A stretch of DNA of 64,000 nt from an uncultured bacterium (lineage in GTDB: Bacteria > Omnitrophota > Omnitrophia > Omnitrophales > Abzuiibacteriaceae). Location: assembly GCA_964387845.1 (NCBI GenBank), contig CAYLXA010000005.1, positions 96,001-160,000 on the forward strand, given 5' to 3'. Positions within the stretch are counted from its first letter, which is position 1. Each line of letters starts with the position of its first letter. The position numbers and the translations under genes were made by a program. The notes beneath the pieces were generated by a model. It was not told the origin of the DNA, did no database searches, and worked only from the letters and a program-made list of their open reading frames with translations. Below, in pieces: positions 31,454-40,383 of the stretch.

Positions 31454-32485
31454 TCAGCTCAAGCCCGCTTCGAACGACAACGTTTCTCGCTTCAATTCCT
31501 TTCGCAATTCTTTTTCCGTAGGCAGGTATAACTTATACTTTGACGCAAAGATTTGCTTACTTCCTTTCGGAAGCGTGTAGCGTACGACCGCTTCCTTCTT
31601 ATCCTCGCACAAAATAAGGCCCACTGTCGGCTGGTCGGTTTTTTGTTTCAACTCGCGGTCATAGTAATTCACATACATTTGCATTTGACCGATGTCTTGA
31701 TGAGTTAGTTTTCCGATTTTCAAATCAATCAGCACAAAGCACCTGAGCAGCGTGTTATAGAAAACCAGATCGATATAGAAATGATCCCCATCAAGTGTGA
31801 TCCTTTTCTGCCGGGCGACAAACGTAAATCCTTTTCCCAGCTCGAGCAAGAACTTGGAAAGATTATCAATCAGCGCTTGCTCCAGTTTGCTTTCATACAG
31901 CTTCGGGTTGGATTCAAGGCCGGTAAATTCCAGAACGTACGGATCTTTAATCATGTCCGTGTAAGTTCGAAGGTCCTGGCCTTTCTTGGCTAATTTGAAG
32001 AGCCCTTTCTTATCTTTGCTTAAAGAAAGCCGTTCAAAAAGCAGGGAACCCTTTTGACGCTCCAATTCCCGGACTGACCAATTGTTTTTGACACATTCAA
32101 TTTCATAAAAGGAGCGTGCCTCCGGTCGTTCGACGCGCATTAAAATCCGGTAATGTGTCCAGCTCAATTCGTGACGCAGTGCGTCACGAATTGGGAAGGT
32201 AAGATAAAACTGACGAATATATCGCAAATTCGAATCATCAAAGCCTCTCCCAAAATCTCTTGTTAGTTTTTCCGAAAGCGACTTCAATAACGTCTCACCG
32301 TAAGTGGCACGTTTTTGGCCTTTTTGTTCTTCTTCCACAATTTCACGGCCGATTAACCAATAGGCCTGCACCATTTCGGTGTTGACGGTACGCGCAATGT
32401 TGGAACGTGCCGATTCTATGATCTGACGGATTTTGGAATAGACTTGGTCTTGCTTTGAGTTTTTCTTTTGAACTTCTTGCGGCAT
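31454..32485 (-). CDS. DUF1016 / YhcG-like PDDEXK nuclease-domain protein
   Basis: '...ARTVNTEMVQAYWLIGREIVEEEQ...' has the YhcG/DUF1016 architecture, with an N-terminal helical part and a C-terminal PD-(D/E)xK-like part. Confidence 0.7.
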   Translation of the reverse strand: MPQEVQKKNSKQDQVYSKIRQIIESARSNIARTVNTEMVQAYWLIGREIVEEEQKGQKRATYGETLLKSLSEKLTRDFGRGFDDSNLRYIRQFYLTFPIRDALRHELSWTHYRILMRVERPEARSFYEIECVKNNWSVRELERQKGSLLFERLSLSKDKKGLFKLAKKGQDLRTYTDMIKDPYVLEFTGLESNPKLYESKLEQALIDNLSKFLLELGKGFTFVARQKRITLDGDHFYIDLVFYNTLLRCFVLIDLKIGKLTHQDIGQMQMYVNYYDRELKQKTDQPTVGLILCEDKKEAVVRYTLPKGSKQIFASKYKLYLPTEKELRKELKRETLSFEAGLS

Positions 32486-32814: not shown

Positions 32815-32918
32815 GTTAAATATTATACCTTATAAGGTATAATATTTTTAAATTATACCAAAAAAGGTATAATATTTTACTAAAGTAGTTGATATTATAC
32901 CCTTAATGGTATACTATT
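32815..32918 (+). promoter_or_regulatory. Three TATACC-N5/6-GGTATA operator palindromes upstream of hipB
   Basis: 'tataccttataaggtata', 'tataccaaaaaaggtata' and 'tatacccttaatggtata'. The third overlaps the first in-frame ATG. Confidence 0.6.
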
Positions 32919-32923
32919 CTGCC

Positions 32924-33145
32924 ATGGATTACATTGGAGAAGAAATTCAAAATTTGCGTAAAAGAGCAGGGCTCACTCAACGAGAATTCGCGAAGCGAGT
33001 GGGTGTGGGGCTTAGATTTATTCGTGATCTTGAACAAGGAAAATCTACCGTACGGCTTGATAAGGTAAATCAGGTGCTTGAATTTTTAGGGCATCATTTG
33101 GAGATTGTTGCCAACCGTGAACGAAAAAATATTCAGAAAAGCTAG
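32924..33145 (+). CDS. hipB: XRE-family HTH protein, HipB-like
   Basis: 'LRKRAGLTQREFAKRVGVGLRFIRDLEQGK' is a Cro/C1-type HTH. It is the first gene of a three-gene hip operon. Confidence 0.75.
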   Translation: MDYIGEEIQNLRKRAGLTQREFAKRVGVGLRFIRDLEQGKSTVRLDKVNQVLEFLGHHLEIVANRERKNIQKS

Positions 33146-33461
33146 AGTTAACTACAAAGATGAACTTGCCGGTTATTTACAAGAAACCGAGAATGGTTTT
33201 CAATTTCTGTATGATGAAAATTATTTGCGTTCCGGCGGACAGCCAATTTCTGTGTCACTTCCTTTAACGAATGAGCCTTACGAATCAAAAGAGCTTTTTA
33301 GTTTCTTCCGCGGACTTTTGCCGGAAGGTTGGTACCTCGATATCGTGAGTGCGGCTAAGAAAATCGATACCAATGATTCTTTCGGCCTGCTTCTGGCTAC
33401 CACAGGCGACACGATCGGCGCAGTGACCGTATATCCAATCCGGGAAAGCGATGAGTCCTAA
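33117..33461 (+). CDS. hipS: HipS-like protein (stand-alone HipA N-terminal subdomain)
   Basis: About 115 aa, similar to HipA N-terminal subdomain 1. The start is uncertain (GTG at 33117 or TTG at 33105). It overlaps the next gene by 11 nt. Confidence 0.6.
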   Translation: MNEKIFRKARVNYKDELAGYLQETENGFQFLYDENYLRSGGQPISVSLPLTNEPYESKELFSFFRGLLPEGWYLDIVSAAKKIDTNDSFGLLLATTGDTIGAVTVYPIRESDES

Positions 33462-34311
33462 TCTGTTTGAAGAAATGTTTGGCACGAGCGAAGCTCCTAC
33501 AATCCCACTTTCGTTGAAGGATGTTCCTCTTCAAGCGCAAGTGATGGCGGGGTATATGTCCATTTCAGGGGTGCAGCCAAAATTGGTGCTGAAATTGGAT
33601 AAGCGTAAAAATGAGCTGACGGTGGCTCAGACGGATGGTGAATATATTTTAAAACCGCAAATCCCGCATTTCCCCCAGACGCCCGAAAATGAAAACTGCT
33701 GTATGGATATCGCTCAGGCGTTTGAGATTGAGGTGCCGCCCCATTGCCTTCTTCCACTGAAAGACGGAAGCCTGGCTTATGCGGTGAAGCGTTTCGATCG
33801 TGTGAGCGGCGAAAAAATCAATCAAGAAAGCTTTTATCAAATTCTTGAAAAAAGAGACAAATATATGGGCTCTCTGGAACAAATCGGTAACAGCCTGAAA
33901 CAAATTTCCGTAGTGCCGGGCCTGGATGTTCAGCTTTTCTTTGAATTAGTCGTTTTCAATTTTCTGATCGGCAATGGTGACGCGCATTTTAAAAATTACT
34001 CCATTTCTTATTTAAAGGATGGCATCCGGCTTTCTCCGGCCTATGATCTGGTTTGTTCCAAGCTGGTGATTCCGGGCGATTCGGATTCCGCACTCACGAT
34101 CAATGGCAAGAAGAATAATCTTAGGCGGGGCGATTTTGATGTGTTGGCTGCTTATTTAAAAATTCCGGAAAAGGTTCGTTACGATAAGTTTGCAGGTCAG
34201 CTTGGAAAAATGGAGCAATTGATTCGAGCCAGCCAACTCTCGGCAGATTTTAAAAAGACGTTTATTCAAATAGTTTCTTCACGTTTTGATCGGCTTAAAT
34301 TGGTGAATTAA
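33451..34311 (+). CDS. hipT: HipT-like Ser/Thr kinase toxin (HipA C-terminal kinase domain)
   Basis: 'LIGNGDAHFKNYSI' is the catalytic motif and 'SPAYDLVCS' is also present. At 286 aa it lacks the HipA N-terminal subdomain, which is supplied separately. Confidence 0.7.
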   Translation: MSPNLFEEMFGTSEAPTIPLSLKDVPLQAQVMAGYMSISGVQPKLVLKLDKRKNELTVAQTDGEYILKPQIPHFPQTPENENCCMDIAQAFEIEVPPHCLLPLKDGSLAYAVKRFDRVSGEKINQESFYQILEKRDKYMGSLEQIGNSLKQISVVPGLDVQLFFELVVFNFLIGNGDAHFKNYSISYLKDGIRLSPAYDLVCSKLVIPGDSDSALTINGKKNNLRRGDFDVLAAYLKIPEKVRYDKFAGQLGKMEQLIRASQLSADFKKTFIQIVSSRFDRLKLVN

Positions 34312-34480
34312 GCGCGCTGAGCCCGGCACGATTAGAACAGGTACCAAAACATTACAAAGTAGTTAATCTAATTTCCTTATATTCACAGTTAAAATATGTA
34401 TATTTATATACATATATATGTATTGAATAGTACATTTATATGTATATAATAATACATATTATATTTGACATTAACACTTT

Positions 34481-34909
34481 TTGAGGGTAGATTTTCTCGT
34501 ACCGGAGGAAGCTGAATATACTAGATTAGTCAAATTTATGACCGCGGCCGGCTATAAACAAGTGACAGGCTATGGTTGGCAGAAAAAAGGAGAGGCAATC
34601 ATTTTTGATCTTTATGTCGGTAATTCGGTTTATTCAACGGAATTATTGTCATCGCCGCTTGAAAAAGGCGGCCATCAGAAATTGAAGGAATGGAATAAAA
34701 TTTATTTAGGTGCTTTAAATCCGGTAGATCTGATTATTTCAAAAATGTTTCGCGGCAGCGAAGTGGATGTCCAGGACAGTTTAGCGTTACTCAAGCATGA
34801 GAAAATTAGTATTGAGGAATTAAAGAAACGATACATCAAAACAGCCAAATATGATGTAAGCGAAGACAGGGTATTGAAAAATTTAGATACATTACTCAGG
34901 AGGCTTTAA
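34481..34909 (+). CDS. Hypothetical protein, first gene of an uncharacterised two-gene module
   Basis: The ORF begins at a TTG, with an alternative ATG at 34538. An AT-rich palindromic promoter region lies upstream. No confident family was assigned. Confidence 0.5.
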   Translation: MRVDFLVPEEAEYTRLVKFMTAAGYKQVTGYGWQKKGEAIIFDLYVGNSVYSTELLSSPLEKGGHQKLKEWNKIYLGALNPVDLIISKMFRGSEVDVQDSLALLKHEKISIEELKKRYIKTAKYDVSEDRVLKNLDTLLRRL

Positions 34910-34911
34910 TC

Positions 34912-35583
34912 ATGGATAAAAGTGATTTGTTGGACCAATTGGCTCAGCATGGCTATTCATTGATGAAGCCAAAATCAGCCGAGCCGGCCGAAAAACTGCT
35001 GGAGGCATTGCTGAAGCAGGATGATGCGCGTCTTTTGGAGGGCTTTCCGGTGGTGTTGGCCAACGCGTTTGACCAAAAAGACGGCTTGACGTGGGAAAAT
35101 CCTAAATGGAATGCTGAGGAATGGCAGGGAAAAAACAGAAGAAAATTGGTGGCCATGCTGTCTTTTAGTTATTATTTGTTTCGTTTATTTGGATTGGCGG
35201 AGTCTGAAAAGAAAGTTTTAGATTTGGTCAAGAAATTAAAAGGGGATAAAACGCTTCTTCATTTAACCGAATCTTTTGCGGAGTCCAAAGAAGTAGACTT
35301 GGACGGTGTCTCGCTATCAACGGAAAGATTAAAAAGCGCTTTCCGCCAATATGTATTAACGTCGGATCAAGGCGACGAAGTCGAAAAAAAGAAACGCGCG
35401 TTGGAATTAGAGCTGCTGCTTTCCGAACTGTTCAGCACGCGGCAAAAAGAACTGCTTGAGAAGCGGCTTGGTGGGGAGGAATTCACCAAAACAGAGCGTG
35501 AATACTATTACCGCGTCGTCAAAAAACGCTTGAAAGCGCTCGCGAGTGACGAACTTCACCAGATGGCCCGTTCGTTGGTTTAG
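34912..35583 (+). CDS. Hypothetical protein, second gene of the two-gene module
   Basis: It starts 3 nt after the upstream gene. The C-terminal 'RQKELLEKRLGGEEFTKTEREYYYRVVKKRLKAL' looks helix-turn-helix-like. Confidence 0.55.
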   Translation: MDKSDLLDQLAQHGYSLMKPKSAEPAEKLLEALLKQDDARLLEGFPVVLANAFDQKDGLTWENPKWNAEEWQGKNRRKLVAMLSFSYYLFRLFGLAESEKKVLDLVKKLKGDKTLLHLTESFAESKEVDLDGVSLSTERLKSAFRQYVLTSDQGDEVEKKKRALELELLLSELFSTRQKELLEKRLGGEEFTKTEREYYYRVVKKRLKALASDELHQMARSLV

Positions 35584-35595
35584 GGCGGGGGGTGT

Positions 35596-35633
35596 GGCTT
35601 GAAGCTTGAAGCTTGTAGCCTGCAGCCCACAAT
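35596..35633. repeat. REP-like repeat, copy B
   Basis: 'ggcttgaagcttgaagcttgtagcctgcagcc'. Confidence 0.6.
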
Positions 35634-36020
35634 CCTATCCGCCGAGCCTTACCCCTTACCCCTAAGTTTCAATCTGGACACAAAGCTTTTTGAGGCATAA
35701 ATCCTACTTAAATTGTGCCTGTACCTGTCCACCAAAATGATGCCTGGCACCTTTCTGTTAAGGATTCATATGCAACTCCTTTTTCCTGTAACATCAGGAT
35801 ATCAGGTGTTGCACTAGTAACTTGAACTCAAGCAGGTACCGAAGTAGAAATCCACTTCCTATCCGCTATACGTTGTTCGCGAACCAATAAAATAGTTGTT
35901 GAAATATAATATAAAGATTGTAAAATAATTACCTCACGCAAACAGTAAACCCCTCTCACGCCTTCACGCGCAAAATCAAACTAATTTCGTAATGCGTTCA
36001 CAAGAAAGGCGGATTTGCCA

Positions 36021-36809
36021 ATGAAAAAAGAAAAACTCATTTCTCAGAGGGATGGTTTACCAATTCGTTCAAGCGGTCCTTGGATCCGCAAAAAACATCA
36101 CTATTTAATCAGATATGCTGACATATTTACCCGAGGGATGAAGAACAAATGGGAATTGACGTACCTTGATCTTTTTGCCGGGCCCGGATGCTGCTTAATT
36201 GAGAAAGAGATGATCGAATTAGCCGGATCTCCGTTACTTGCATTAGGTTTTGATTTTAGGAAATACATTTTTATTGAACAGGATCATGATGACCTTGAAG
36301 CATTGAAACAGCGGTGCTCAAAATCACCAAAACTAAGCCAGATTCAATTCATAGAAGGGGATTGTAATAAGAATATTGATCAAATTCGATTGACGGGATT
36401 AACGCTGGCTTTTATCGATCCAACTGGTATTGACGTTCATTTTGAAACGATTAAACGACTCACCTCTTTAGGGCCGGTGGACCTGCTAATAAACATACCA
36501 TTTCACATTGATATCAAGCGCAACTTCACGAAGTATATAAAAACCCAACATAAAAAATTGGATCTCTTTCTTGGCGGTAAGGTACCGTGGGATAAATTGC
36601 ATCAAGAAAGGGATGTTTTAGAGTTATACAAAAAGCGAATAAAGGATTTGGGGTATCAAACCGTAGAATACAGCGACATAGTTGTCAGTAATACAAACAA
36701 AGTTCCTATGTACTTTCTTTTCTTTGCGTCCAAGCATTCGCGTGGTGTAGAATTCTGGAAGAAAATTACCAAGAAAGACGAAACCGGACAACTGGAGTTA
36801 GAACTCTAA
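36021..36809 (+). CDS. Three-Cys-motif partner protein TcmP family (MTase-like fold)
   Basis: '[11 protein letters not shown]' resembles SAM-binding motif I. 'FIDPTG' sits in the place of a DPPY-like motif. The gene is adjacent to a Gp37/Gp68 (DUF5131) gene, which is the defining context of TcmP. Confidence 0.6.
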
Positions 36810-36811
36810 GA

Positions 36812-37570
36812 ATGAGCGATAAATCAAATATCGAATGGACCGACGCGACATGGAATCCGGTAACGGGATGCAATAAAATCAGCCCCGGATGTAAAAACTG
36901 CTACGCCGAAACTTTCGCTGAGCGCTGGCGGGGAATTCCGGGCCATCCCTACGAACAGGGTTTTGACCTCAGATTATGGCCTGAGCGTGTCGGCTTGCCA
37001 TTATCGTGGAAAGAGCCGCGGATGATTTTTGTCAATTCCATGTCTGATCTTTTTCATAAAGATGTTCCGGATGACTTTATAGGGAAAGTATTTGAAACGA
37101 TGCTCAAAGCTAATCAGCATACTTTCCAGGTTCTGACCAAGCGGCCTGAGCGCATGGTTGAATGGACCAAGAAAACATTCGGCAATCAAAAATTACCGCG
37201 TCATATCTGGCTTGGTGTTTCGGTTGAAAACCAGGATTACGTATGGCGAATCATGTATCTTCAGCAAACACCGGCTCAAATCCGTTTTCTTTCGGTTGAG
37301 CCTCTTTTGGGGCCTGTTGTTTTAAAATCTTCAAATTTAAAAGGCATTCATTGGGTGATCGTGGGTGGCGAGAGCGGACACAGAGCCCGTCCTATGAATC
37401 CCGACTGGGCGCGTGATATCCGCAATCAATGCGAAAAATATGGCGTCGCTTTTTTCTTCAAACAATGGGGCGCTTTTAACGCGAAAGGCGAACGCGTTGG
37501 TAAAAAAGCCGCCGGCCGGGTTCTCGACCGCAGAACCTGGAACGAAATGCCAATTACAATCCCCGCCTAG
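36812..37570 (+). CDS. Phage Gp37/Gp68 family protein (DUF5131), three-Cys motif
   Basis: The N-terminus '[27 protein letters not shown]' is the family signature and includes a CX6CX2C motif. Confidence 0.7.
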
Positions 37571-37625: not shown

Positions 37626-37744
37626 CATCATGATATAATTCCTATCGCGACGGCGCCCACATTGACCGCCGCGTGATGGCACTTGCGCCAGCGTTACCGC
37701 AGGTGCCTGCGAACGAAGTGACGCAGAATAAAGCGCAAGTGTCT

Positions 37745-38092
37745 ATGTCCGACATCAAGAAACTCACCGAAAAGATCAAGCAATTCCGCGACGAACGGGA
37801 TTGGAAGCAATTCCACAACCACAAAGATATGGCACTTTCACTTGTTCTTGAAGCCGCTGAACTTTTAGAACATTTCCAGTGGAAAACATTGGATGAAGTT
37901 GAAAAGCACGTGAAAACCTCAAAAGAGGATGTTTCAGATGAGCTTGGCGATGTCGCGATCTATCTTTTCGAGCTCGCCGATAACTTAGGGATAGACCTAT
38001 CAGAAGCGGTAGAAAGCAAGCTTCTTAAGAATGCCAGAAAATATCCTATACAAAAATCTAAAGGCACCATAACCAAGTACAATCAATTGTAA
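37745..38092 (+). CDS. MazG-like nucleotide pyrophosphohydrolase (all-alpha NTP-PPase)
   Basis: 'ERDWKQFHNHKDMALSLVLEAAELLEHFQWK...ELGDVAIYLFELAD' is the MazG/dCTPase-like EExxE/D signature. Confidence 0.7.
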   Translation: MSDIKKLTEKIKQFRDERDWKQFHNHKDMALSLVLEAAELLEHFQWKTLDEVEKHVKTSKEDVSDELGDVAIYLFELADNLGIDLSEAVESKLLKNARKYPIQKSKGTITKYNQL

Positions 38093-38099
38093 AGATTAA

Positions 38100-38876
38100 A
38101 TGCCCGGCAATGAATCTGCAGTAATAAAGTATTTGTTCAGAAATAAGAATCGTCTCGAGTTACCTCATTTAGGTTTAATAAAATCAATTGGGTTTCCAAA
38201 TGGACTCACAAATAACTACAAAGAAATAAAAAATGAAAATGAAATTTTAGAATGTTGCTCAGACAATGCTCGAAAAAAAGCAGATGTCTATATTAATGGG
38301 CAAGGCGTATCAATAAAACAATCAGGAGGAAGTTTTTCTTTTAATCGTTTGCAGCGTGCCGAGTTAATAGAAGTTTTTGCTAGTTTAATTTTTGATGCCC
38401 CTCATAATGTTTTAACTCAATTAGATAAAGAAGTTGAAAAATTTCATTTTGGAAAATTATCAGGACGTGGTAGGCCGTGGAAAGATTTTTTCTCAAATAA
38501 AGAATTTTATGCTTTAACAAATGCTCTTATGATGTTGCAATCTCCAAATTATGGACTTTCTCTTCATCCCGCTAAATTTATTCTGGAGGCTTCAAAAAAT
38601 TTAACAACCAATCCGAGTTTAAAAGTTTATACTTTTGATGAATATTTTGAACGTTATAACGAGTTTTTCAGGATTGCTATAAGACGTGTTTGGTTGGGGC
38701 AGAATAGTAAATCTGAGCATGGCCGTGCAAAAAGTCTAATAGCAAAACCTGAGAATGCAACCTGGGTCTTTAATACAATTTCCGGAACGCCAAGAAGTGG
38801 TTGGAAAGTTGATTTTCCAAAGTCGGAAAGAAGAACTGTGTATTATTTGATGATAGAAAAAGTAAATTCAAAATGA
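38100..38876 (+). CDS. Hypothetical protein, putative type II restriction endonuclease by context
   Basis: Very AT-rich, with no family recognised. It directly precedes vsr and overlaps it by 4 nt, upstream of the dcm-type methyltransferase. Confidence 0.4.
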   Translation: MPGNESAVIKYLFRNKNRLELPHLGLIKSIGFPNGLTNNYKEIKNENEILECCSDNARKKADVYINGQGVSIKQSGGSFSFNRLQRAELIEVFASLIFDAPHNVLTQLDKEVEKFHFGKLSGRGRPWKDFFSNKEFYALTNALMMLQSPNYGLSLHPAKFILEASKNLTTNPSLKVYTFDEYFERYNEFFRIAIRRVWLGQNSKSEHGRAKSLIAKPENATWVFNTISGTPRSGWKVDFPKSERRTVYYLMIEKVNSK

Positions 38877-39301
38877 CATTTGTATTTCAAACGACAAGTC
38901 AACGCTCCGAGTTAATGAAAAAGATTAAAGGAGTTAACACTAAGCCAGAAATTGCTTTTGCAAAGAAACTTGAATTATACAAAGTCAAGTTTAGAAAACA
39001 TTTTAAAAAACTCCCTGGAGTACCGGATTTTGCTATTTTGAGAGGTAGAGTAGCGGTGTTTATCGATGGGGAGTTTTGGCATGGATACAATTGGGTTAAT
39101 AAAAAGAAAAGGATAAGATCCAACCGACAATACTGGATTAAAAAAATAGAAAGAAATATACTAAGAGATTCGATAAATATGAGAGAATTAAAGAAAATAG
39201 GTTGGTATCCTTTAAGATTTTGGCAGCATGAAGTTGTTGCTGAGGGTGATAAATGTATAAAGAAAATCGAAAAAATAATGCAGCGACGAAGTTCAAAATA
39301 G
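38873..39301 (+). CDS. vsr: Very-short-patch-repair endonuclease
   Basis: 'KPEIAFAKKL...PGVPDFAILRGRVAVFIDGEFWHG'. Confidence 0.85.
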   Translation: MTFVFQTTSQRSELMKKIKGVNTKPEIAFAKKLELYKVKFRKHFKKLPGVPDFAILRGRVAVFIDGEFWHGYNWVNKKKRIRSNRQYWIKKIERNILRDSINMRELKKIGWYPLRFWQHEVVAEGDKCIKKIEKIMQRRSSK

Positions 39302-40383
39302 CATCTTTTTTTGCTGGCTGTGGCGGCCTAGATTTAGGTTTCCAGCAAGCGGGCTTTGATGTTGTTTGGGCAAATGAATACGATAAAACAATTTGGGCTA
39401 CCTACGAACACAACCATCCTCATACGTTTTTATGCAAGAAATCTATTATCGATGTCAAATCAGATGAAATTCCAACTGTTGTTGGCATGATAGGTGGCCC
39501 GCCATGCCAAAGCTGGAGTTTAGCCGGAGCCATGAGGGGAGTAAAAGACCCGCGAGGTAAACTTTTTTATGAATACATAAGAATCTTGGCCGATAAACAA
39601 CCATCATTTTTCTTAGCCGAAAATGTTGCGGGCATTGTTTCTAGCACTCATGTGAATTCATTTGAAAATATCCTTAAAAAATTCGAAGAAATTGGTTACG
39701 TTACTTCATATAAATTGCTTGATGCAAAATCCTACGGCGTTCCTCAGGATCGGAAAAGAGTTATCATTGTAGGGTATTCTAAAGGTTTACATAAGAAATT
39801 TGAATTCCCGCAAGAAACTCATGGTGTAAATTCAGCGAATGGCGACTTATTCAAGCCACATTTAAAACCCTATGAAACTTTACGCTCTGCAATTGACGAT
39901 TTGCCTAATCCGGTGCCTGCTAGTTTGAAAAATAAGTCGAACAGCAGAATTCGTATTCCAAATCACGAATATATGACAGGAGGTTTTTCTACCATTTACA
40001 TGTCACGAAATAGGAGAAGAAATTGGAATGAGCCTTCATTTACAATTCAGGCGGGAGGCCGGCATGCACCGCTACATCCATCAAGCACTGAAATGATTAA
40101 AAAAGAGCCAGATTGGTGGGTATTTAAAAAGAAAGACAAAAAGGCTTATCGGCGAATGTCGGTAAGAGAATGCGCACGAGTTCAAACCTTCCCTGATAAA
40201 TTCATATTCAAATATGATTCAATTGCGGATGGTTATAAAATGGTTGGTAATGCAGTTCCCGTCGAGTTGGCGCGTGTTATAGCATTAAGAATAAAGTCAG
40301 ATTTGATACCAGAGAAAAATAATCTTAAAAGATCATCCCTTCGCAAAACACCCTATTCCGAATTGGTGTTAGCTTCCTCATAA
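39253..40383 (+). CDS. dcm: DNA (cytosine-5)-methyltransferase
   Basis: Motif I 'FAGCGGLDLGF', motif IV 'GGPPCQSWS' and 'ENV'. The start is uncertain and overlaps the vsr 3' end. Confidence 0.9.
   Translation: MYKENRKNNAATKFKIASFFAGCGGLDLGFQQAGFDVVWANEYDKTIWATYEHNHPHTFLCKKSIIDVKSDEIPTVVGMIGGPPCQSWSLAGAMRGVKDPRGKLFYEYIRILADKQPSFFLAENVAGIVSSTHVNSFENILKKFEEIGYVTSYKLLDAKSYGVPQDRKRVIIVGYSKGLHKKFEFPQETHGVNSANGDLFKPHLKPYETLRSAIDDLPNPVPASLKNKSNSRIRIPNHEYMTGGFSTIYMSRNRRRNWNEPSFTIQAGGRHAPLHPSSTEMIKKEPDWWVFKKKDKKAYRRMSVRECARVQTFPDKFIFKYDSIADGYKMVGNAVPVELARVIALRIKSDLIPEKNNLKRSSLRKTPYSELVLASS

Follow-up and report, generated by a model that had tools for sequence, protein, structure and literature searches.

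A degenerate copy of a widespread, uncharacterized nucleotidyltransferase cassette with a conserved operator-like array in an uncultured Omnitrophota bacterium

A 64,000-nt stretch of DNA (the window) from an uncultured Omnitrophota bacterium (Abzuiibacteriaceae; assembly GCA_964387845.1, contig CAYLXA010000005.1, positions 96,001–160,000) contains two adjacent open reading frames (ORFs), ORF1 and ORF2, which lie on the forward strand behind an AT-rich region and which an earlier note on this DNA had suggested to be a novel toxin–antitoxin (TA) or abortive-infection pair. According to our analysis, a widespread, uncharacterized two-gene cassette is present here in degenerate form, as an operator array and an intact, orphaned partner gene that accompany the dead remnant of a presumed toxin gene. 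A second public assembly (L003) holds an identical sequence, possibly from the same sample as the window. In window coordinates, the locus comprises the following features:

34396–34413, no strand: operator-like palindrome 1, ATGTATATTTATATACAT, with perfect arms ATGTATAT / ATATACAT; exact TGTA-N8-TACA from 34397
34418–34435, no strand: operator-like palindrome 2, ATGTATTGAATAGTACAT, 22 bp past site 1; TGTA-N8-TACA from 34419
34440–34457, no strand: operator-like palindrome 3, ATGTATATAATAATACAT, 22 bp past site 2
34465–34493, forward strand: putative promoter, TTGACA-17 nt-TAGATT, 10/12 matches
34481–34909, forward strand: ORF1, TTG start, 142 aa; 5'-truncated DUF6036 nucleotidyltransferase (NTase) gene, probable toxin remnant
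34898–34903, forward strand: ORF2 ribosome-binding site AGGAGG, within the 3' end of ORF1
34912–35583, forward strand: ORF2, ATG start, 223 aa; intact partner gene without a named family, proposed antitoxin and autorepressor
35374–35580, forward strand: C-terminal four-helix basic domain of ORF2 (aa 155–223), with a near-invariant KTEREY..R..KK helix

Both reading frames are present as the earlier note described them, although the gap between them is 2 nt (ORF1 stop codon TAA at 34907–34909, ORF2 ATG at 34912) rather than the 3 nt given there. That note had also found no nameable family for either protein, which holds for ORF2 (see below) but not for ORF1. ORF1 matches Pfam family DUF6036 (PF19502) with 27.3 bits (gathering cut-off 23.6, E-value 3.6e-6) over profile positions 86–152 of 164, and the same model matches all 12 of the 12 aligned ORF1 homologues. 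Pfam describes DUF6036 as a 'nucleotidyltransferase of unknown function', its entry giving no function, partner or operator, and a literature search for DUF6036 found no paper.

The match to the family is incomplete. With 142 aa, ORF1 is short compared to its homologues of ~190 aa (188–214 aa), 65 of which are found in the protein collection in addition to the window protein (66 matches in total), typically with 188–199 aa. ORF1 is 60–70% identical to these proteins, but only from homologue residue ~49 onward; in tblastn, the homology begins at 34487, corresponding to family residue ~49 of ~190. The N-terminal catalytic half of the DUF6036 domain (the first ~47 residues) is gone, and because of an in-frame stop at 34451, ORF1 could be extended N-terminally by nine codons at most. 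This 5' truncation had been overlooked in the earlier note. A tblastn search of the window with six full-length homologues revealed nothing significant corresponding to the missing N-terminal ~47 codons. We therefore rejected an insertion that split ORF1, as no N-terminal fragment lies elsewhere in the window, in favor of a deletion.

The deleted part carried much of the active site. Full-length family members share G33 and G34 of motif I, followed after 13 residues by D48-V-D50 (GG-x13-DVD), an invariant T46-K47-D48, K134 and D142xxD145. In an alignment with homologues, the near-invariant LIACGGTALTLLGYKESTKD is not found in ORF1 of the window, whose residues M-R-V-D-F-L-V align to K-D-V-D-F-L-V of the relatives, such that the first catalytic Asp is lost. 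Hence, motif I (hG[G/S]) is deleted, motif II (DhD) is reduced to R-V-D, and missing as well is the Thr (family T46) that precedes the first catalytic Asp by two residues and would correspond to the phosphoacceptor of MenT1. Retained are the motif III Lys in its hydrophobic context (K88), R91 and the motif IV DxxD (D96, D99), all of them invariant columns that correspond to K134, R137, D142 and D145 of the family. In AbiEii toxins, motifs I–IV are each needed for toxicity (PMC3985639). In MenT1 of Mycobacterium tuberculosis, T39 is the phosphoacceptor, D41 and K137 are needed for nucleotide binding and activity, and D152 is needed for tRNA modification activity (PMC11375011). Judging from order and spacing, the family Lys and Asp are likely to be equivalent to AbiEii K173/D192 and MenT1 K137/D152. 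By analogy to mutants of AbiEii (G49A, D67A) and MenT1 (D41A), ORF1 of the window cannot be an active enzyme.

ORF2 did not match any entry in Pfam, NCBIfam, PADLOC, PHROGs or the PDB sequences, and a structural search gave no match to any solved fold, none of the HEPN kind included. Its family is nevertheless large: we found 390 homologous proteins in a word-indexed search, 427 clusters at 50% identity in an exhaustive search and, in species-representative genomes, 428 matching stretches. These genomes belong to several phyla, mostly to Omnitrophota; other hosts are Elusimicrobiota, Desulfobacterota, planctomycetes, Spirochaetota, Clostridia, Planktothrix and Phenylobacterium. ORF2 is all-helical, with an N-terminal helical domain (aa 1–151) and the basic C-terminal domain (pI 9.0; consensus LSQVFSPKQKELFLKKLKGEKLTKTEREYFSRVVKKKVLALA). 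Conservation is highest in the latter, with a mean top-residue frequency of 0.67 compared to 0.38–0.53 elsewhere in ORF2. While searches of plasmid and phage collections with ORF2 gave no match, a scan of viral contigs yielded its C-terminal domain, only in other proteins. On two of these contigs (L165, 2824–3255; L166, 4932–5189), the C-terminal ~55-aa domain occurs without the rest of the protein, on one of them fused to an HNH_3 endonuclease and on the other as an 85-aa protein just 5' of a 527-aa ORF that by eye looks like a large terminase. Its conservation, basic charge and stand-alone occurrence in viruses suggest that the C-terminal domain is a separate module, consistent with nucleic-acid binding, and the helix-turn-helix-like character that had been ascribed to the end of ORF2 is plausible.

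The AT-rich DNA in front of ORF1 (GC content 0.20 in 34350–34499) contains the palindrome quoted in the earlier note, but its ordered part, three 18-bp palindromes, is shorter than the ~150 nt claimed there. Sequences matching ATGTATATNNATATACAT with at most three mismatches occur three times in the window, compared to 0.07 expected, and exact TGTA-N8-TACA occurs three times in the 64 kb, in each case within the array. The TTGACA element (34465–34470) follows the array and corresponds to the conserved −35 box of the relatives, in which (L005, L013, L015) the operators are followed by TTGACT or TTGATT.

The same array accompanies the cassette in other genomes. In the 150 nt 5' of 122 unique intact cassettes, we counted 223 copies of exact TGTA-N8-TACA, compared to a mean of 0.71 in shuffled upstream regions and to four copies in the remaining 635 kb of the same loci; 116 of the 122 cassettes have at least one copy upstream and 93 have at least two. 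Neighboring sites are spaced by 22 bp in 94 of 107 pairs and by 44 bp in ten. The extended consensus is A-T-TGTAT-N6-ATACA-A-T (20 bp), and arrays comprise two to four palindromes. A pitch of 22 bp corresponds to about two helical turns, so that the sites come to lie on almost one and the same face of the double helix. In the clade to which the window belongs, the array lies just 5' of the −35 box, whereas more distant clades have it between the −35 box and the start codon. At such distant loci (L027–L036 and many others), with the operators 3' of the −35 box, the ATG of the NTase gene is located inside a TTGTATG half-site and has no visible Shine-Dalgarno sequence; there, the palindrome-made 5' leader could also fold as RNA hairpins.

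The array is also found directly before ORF2 at loci lacking the NTase (L030, L062, L063, L065, L069), and it is kept in L011, which has suffered an independent 5' deletion of the NTase gene much like that in the window. Retention of the array at solo ORF2 loci indicates that the sites are tied to ORF2. Most simply, ORF2 would bind the palindromes and thereby repress its own operon; the half-site and the KTEREY..R..KK helix are both invariant across phyla, consistent with ORF2–operator binding. No TGTA-N8-TACA was found at the viral loci L165 and L166. At one of the solo loci, L065 (3117–3617, 3907–3968), ORF2 has three operator sites directly 5', and an unrelated small nucleotidyltransferase-like ORF (…GAFAVAFYARPRYTKDIDILI…) lies ~380 nt before it.

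Could the palindromes be unconnected to the cassette, representing low-complexity promoter DNA, a site for a global regulator of the host (a box of the LexA type, for example), or a mobile element's end or scar? Palindromes easily arise in DNA as AT-rich as this, and the motif superficially resembles the SOS box of Escherichia coli, CTGT-N8-ACAG. However, neither the fixed 22-bp pitch nor the presence of the motif at 116 of 122 cassettes across several phyla, set against four copies in 635 kb of surrounding DNA, none elsewhere in the window and the 0.71 matches of shuffled regions, would be expected of such DNA. In addition, the TGTA and TACA half-sites are N8 apart, while the same tetramers are N6 apart in the SOS box. 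Based on this specificity and half-site spacing, we rejected the host-regulator/SOS-box reading, and we give the idea of unconnected palindromes as a whole almost no credence.

The relationship between the two genes was analyzed in two samples of loci. A sample seeded with ORF2 comprised 80 genome loci, 74 of which were informative, six lying at contig ends; a sample seeded with the NTase comprised 80 metagenome loci, the best 80 of at least 296 confirmed relatives. At all loci the partner gene lies 3' of the NTase gene, and the two genes overlap or abut. Among the best 80 NTase-seeded loci, ORF2 was found downstream of the NTase gene in all 78 with room for it. Conversely, an intact NTase gene lies directly upstream of ORF2, on the same strand, in 58 of the 80 ORF2-seeded loci, while seven have a damaged NTase gene, nine have none and six end with the contig; 16 of the 74 informative loci thus lack an undamaged NTase gene. 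The damage takes the form of 5' deletions (L011, L079), a 3' deletion (L076), internal deletions (L041, L050), a stop codon plus a deletion (L017) and a split gene (L055). Together, 78/78 NTase genes with ORF2 and 16/74 ORF2 genes without an intact NTase gene amount to an asymmetry of the toxin/antitoxin type: an NTase that never occurs without ORF2, and an ORF2 that often outlives the NTase, is the pattern expected of a toxin and its antidote.

Beyond the pair itself, little is shared between the loci. The two cassette genes recur in 150 and 139 of the 160 loci, the next most common neighbor families in only 12 and 11 (by eye Fic-like and AAA-ATPase-like); further neighbors include, again by eye, integrase-like, HipA-like and DUF1016-like genes. 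The cassette is strongly conserved, autonomous and patchily distributed. With two small, co-directional genes that overlap or abut, varied neighborhoods and asymmetric decay, it has the general features of an autoregulated TA system. Neither gene has housekeeping homology, and the co-occurrence of the two is very strong, the points on which the earlier note had staked its suggestion. On the short metagenome contig L085 (3–533 and 1358–2152), an ORF2 homologue is followed within 2 kb by a full NTase-ORF2 cassette, indicating that cassettes or solo partners can stand in tandem.

The same decay bears on whether the polarity of the pair might be reversed, as in the type VII system MntA-HepT, with the NTase acting as an antitoxin that modifies and thereby silences a toxic ORF2. 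MntA-HepT has the NTase gene first and the partner gene second, as does the cassette, and ORF2 is all-helical like HEPN toxins. However, the HEPN motif Rx4-6H is not found among the invariant residues of ORF2, on which ground we rejected a HEPN reading of ORF2, and the structural search found no HEPN-like match. Moreover, an intact ORF2 stands beside a truncated, split or deleted NTase gene in 16 loci and in the window, which would be lethal if ORF2 were toxic, and the NTase resembles MenT1 including a C-terminal helical domain, rather than a minimal MNT protein. We therefore consider reversed polarity highly improbable.

As to the enzyme, comparison of folds placed the NTase closest to MenT1 of M. 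tuberculosis (figure of 12.7, 162 residues aligned), followed by ANT(2'') (10.9), LnuA (10.3), MenT3/TglT (9.9) and MenT4 (9.7), such that it shares the fold of solved MenT toxins. The PADLOC AbiEii model weakly matches all four of four full-length homologues (E-values 5.8e-6 to 0.012) and does not match the truncated ORF1 of the window, and a profile search of the PDB sequences did not find MenT structures.

We also weighed whether the cassette might encode an NTase that modifies small molecules, conferring ANT(2'')/Lnu-like resistance or detoxification, together with a repressor, ORF2, that is released from the palindromes by the substrate. Several observations argue otherwise: the weak AbiEii profile matches; the agreement of Thr-x-Asp, Lys and DxxD with the MenT/AbiEii motifs; the overlapping or abutting genes in varied neighborhoods, including Fic-like, AAA-ATPase-like, integrase-like and HipA-like genes; and an addiction-type asymmetry (78/78; 16/74) that one would not expect between an enzyme and the repressor belonging to it. 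The resistance-enzyme explanation thus appears unlikely to us. In sum, asymmetric decay and MenT-like motifs argue against MntA-HepT and ANT(2'')/LnuA alike, the partner lacking, with respect to the former, both the HEPN Rx4-6H motif and the HEPN fold.

Functionally, the cassette resembles two known NTase TA systems, in that a putative NTase toxin is combined with a putative protein antitoxin and, as in AbiE, the operon would regulate itself via palindromes at its promoter, but it differs from both. MenAT1 of M. tuberculosis (MenT1, Rv0078A; MenA1, Rv0078B) is likewise a two-gene operon in which the enzyme is paired with an unrelated protein partner; T39-R40-D41 of MenT1 parallels T46-K47-D48 of the family, and a Lys and an Asp are located in the C-terminal half of both enzymes. 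However, MenT1 has no detectable sequence similarity to the cassette NTase, and MenA1 comprises 68 aa, lacks a DNA-binding domain and is encoded upstream (PMC10435456, PMC11375011), whereas the cassette partner comprises ~230 aa and is encoded downstream. MenAT1 is, moreover, not transcriptionally autoregulated (PMC10435456, PMC11375011), whereas the cassette has a conserved operator array. The type IV system AbiE (AbiEi/AbiEii) combines an NTase toxin bearing motifs I–IV with an antitoxin that binds inverted repeats in the promoter and thereby represses the operon (PMC3985639) and, like the cassette, is widely but patchily distributed among defense and TA genes. AbiEii, however, belongs to DUF1814, has ~300 aa and contains GG-x15-DxD, in contrast to a DUF6036 protein of ~190 aa with a 13-residue spacing; AbiEi belongs to COG5340 and has a winged helix-turn-helix at its N-terminus, its gene preceding the toxin gene, whereas ORF2 is not detectably related to AbiEi, follows the NTase and has the candidate DNA-binding domain in its C-terminal part. 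A further difference lies in the operators, AbiE having two 23-bp inverted repeats and the cassette two to four 20-bp palindromes at 22-bp pitch. Antitoxin genes of AbiE and MenAT lie upstream and are of the COG5340/COG4861 or MenA1 type; the cassette partner gene lies downstream and has no family or structural match. Because the enzyme belongs to another Pfam family that the DUF1814/AbiEii model fails to recognize, the gene order is reversed and the partner is unrelated to COG5340, COG4861 and MenA1, we file the cassette as an NTase TA system that is a member of neither AbiE nor MenAT. What is new is the partner, together with the order of the genes and the operator; the kind of toxin, with a DNA polymerase beta/MenT-like fold, is already known.

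Based on these results, we suggest that the locus is best explained as a degenerate copy of a TA cassette of the MenT/AbiEii type whose gene order is reversed and whose antitoxin is new and autoregulatory, the toxin having been recently inactivated here. We hold this explanation to be probable, if by no wide measure; toxicity, neutralization and DNA binding are in it predicted activities. Several points weigh against it. For every cassette member, the toxic, neutralizing, DNA-binding and enzymatic activities are predicted ones. The gene order is the reverse of that in AbiE and MenAT, and the Pfam AbiEii model does not recognize the family (E-value 0.097, one of 12 members). The cassette was not found on sequenced plasmids or phages, and the NTase-seeded sample, as the best 80 of at least 296 relatives, is not a full census. 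Still, each of the four other explanations considered here (the last of which concerns a functional short ORF1; see below) is less likely than the TA explanation. The observation in the earlier note was largely right. Its idea of a novel TA pair holds at the level of the family, given a conserved autonomous cassette, a palindrome array, a MenT/AbiEii-like enzyme and asymmetric decay, but the toxin side, a DUF6036 NTase, is not novel in kind, and the pair in the window is not an intact module.

An intact cassette comprises two to four 20-bp palindromes that flank or overlap a sigma-70-type promoter, a ~190-aa DUF6036 NTase with an hGG-x13-DVD core, a motif III Lys, DxxD and a MenT1-like fold, and a ~230-aa all-helical partner whose gene overlaps or abuts the NTase gene. 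The NTase would be a growth-arresting toxin of the MenT/AbiEii kind, which, by analogy, would extend the 3' ends of tRNAs with nucleotides. The partner would act both as antitoxin and as operon repressor, binding the palindromes via its basic C-terminal helical domain, with several dimers bound on one face of the DNA, while its N-terminal domain would neutralize the NTase, either by sequestering it, by inducing it to autophosphorylate the Thr that lies two positions ahead of the first catalytic Asp, or by both. More tentatively, ORF2 may be the founder of a new antitoxin/DNA-binding family without a solved relative, which controls a minimal MenT1-like toxin (possibly through Thr autophosphorylation) and binds its array cooperatively, solo loci, such as that of the window after the loss of its toxin, being kept because they shield the cell from cassette copies that arrive (anti-addiction) or having been domesticated as regulators; this wider proposal is conceivable, and we would not expect it to hold in full.

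In the window, a deletion would have removed ~170–190 bp, from just 3' of the −35 box to about codon 48 of the NTase gene. We infer this extent from close relatives, in which the operators are followed by TTGAC(T), about 45 nt that include GGAGG, and the ATG. The −10 part of the putative promoter, TAGATT, is new sequence formed at the deletion junction. Such a deletion would have abolished catalysis together with the NTase ribosome-binding site, while sparing the array of operators, the −35 box and the partner gene along with the ribosome-binding site of the latter, and leaving the cell with an orphan antitoxin/regulator. Comparison of NTase identity with ORF2 identity revealed no excess divergence that would point to relaxed selection on the remnant: at an ORF2 identity of 0.50–0.55, the NTase identity is 0.599 for the window remnant and 0.602 ± 0.050 for other pairs. 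A remnant that diverges no more than intact NTases implies that the deletion is recent or that the remnant is still constrained.

Continued constraint would be in line with a functional 142-aa ORF1, for example a C-terminal helical domain serving ORF2 as co-repressor or adaptor, in which case the locus would be a working module of a new kind. Indeed, the frame is open for 142 codons, ORF1 shows the same degree of conservation as intact homologues when ORF2 divergence is matched, and L011 and L079 have N-terminal truncations at nearby positions. However, a recent deletion explains the conservation too, and the damage at other loci is heterogeneous, comprising 5', 3' and internal deletions, stops and complete loss, as expected for decay and not for a selected short form. 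In addition, neither the TTG nor the next in-frame ATG is preceded by a Shine-Dalgarno sequence, while ORF2 has AGGAGG, and the TTG falls inside the 17-nt spacer of TTGACA-17-TAGATT. As its start codon lacks a Shine-Dalgarno sequence and sits in a promoter spacer, the existence of a 142-aa ORF1 product is doubtful. Given the heterogeneous damage elsewhere and the missing translation signals in the window, we favor a recent deletion and regard a functional short ORF1 as quite improbable.

The surroundings of the locus agree with the earlier note, which had placed it between hipB-, hipS- and hipT-like genes and a TcmP/DUF5131 pair. Upstream, a hipBST-like set with overlapping frames (32906–34311) encodes a 79-aa HTH_3 protein, a 118-aa protein made up of 'Couple_hipA', the N-terminal domain of HipA, and a 286-aa protein with a HipA_C kinase domain. 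Three perfect TATACC-N6-GGTATA palindromes (32824–32841, 32854–32871 and 32896–32913; three matches compared to 0.05 expected) lie upstream of, and overlap, the hipB start (ATG at 32906). They are probably HipB operators, distinct from the ATGTAT-N6-ATACAT sites of the cassette. We rejected the possibility that the hipBST genes and the AT-rich DNA arrived as one inserted unit, as hipB has different palindromes and the ATGTAT array accompanies the cassette elsewhere. A gene for a YhcG/DUF1016 PD-(D/E)xK nuclease (31454–32485, reverse strand) adjoins the hipBST genes, and a DUF1016-like gene (by eye) adjoins the cassette in three other loci, for example L013 (2209–3303).

On the 3' side, ORF2 is followed by 430 nt (35584–36014) that begin with a run rich in G and a short direct repeat (gcttgaagcttgaagcttg) and contain neither an ORF of at least 50 aa nor an intrinsic terminator on the forward strand. 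A search of the whole window gave no Rfam match, such that neither the palindromes nor this spacer correspond to a known RNA. Directly downstream lies the pair of TcmP (TIGR04474, E-value 1e-39) and DUF5131 (E-value 2e-104) genes (36015–37570), the DUF5131 protein also weakly matching 'radical SAM mobile pair protein A'. A defense-type run (37673–40383) then comprises a fragment match to a MazG-like pyrophosphohydrolase, a 258-aa ORF (38100–38876), Vsr (38873–39301) and the cytosine methyltransferase Dcm (39253–40383). The 258-aa ORF, for which we found no NCBIfam match, may be the restriction endonuclease of this run.

For genome annotation, our results mean that ORF1 should be treated as a truncated gene and not as a 142-aa protein. 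MenT/AbiEii toxins are a major class in TA systems and phage defense, with strikingly diverse antitoxins. To this class the cassette would add a compact toxin subfamily, DUF6036, which has no assigned function, and an antitoxin/regulator family that lies outside Pfam, NCBIfam, PADLOC and PHROGs and has no solved structural relative. The operator is an unusually well-defined code, conserved across phyla, and would form with ORF2 a simple protein–DNA pair. The many independent losses of the putative toxin, with partner and operators retained, offer a natural data set on the decay or domestication of such modules. If the wider proposal made above for ORF2 is correct, the MenAT/AbiE superfamily gains with the cassette a new branch that spans phyla and is centered on uncultivated lineages.

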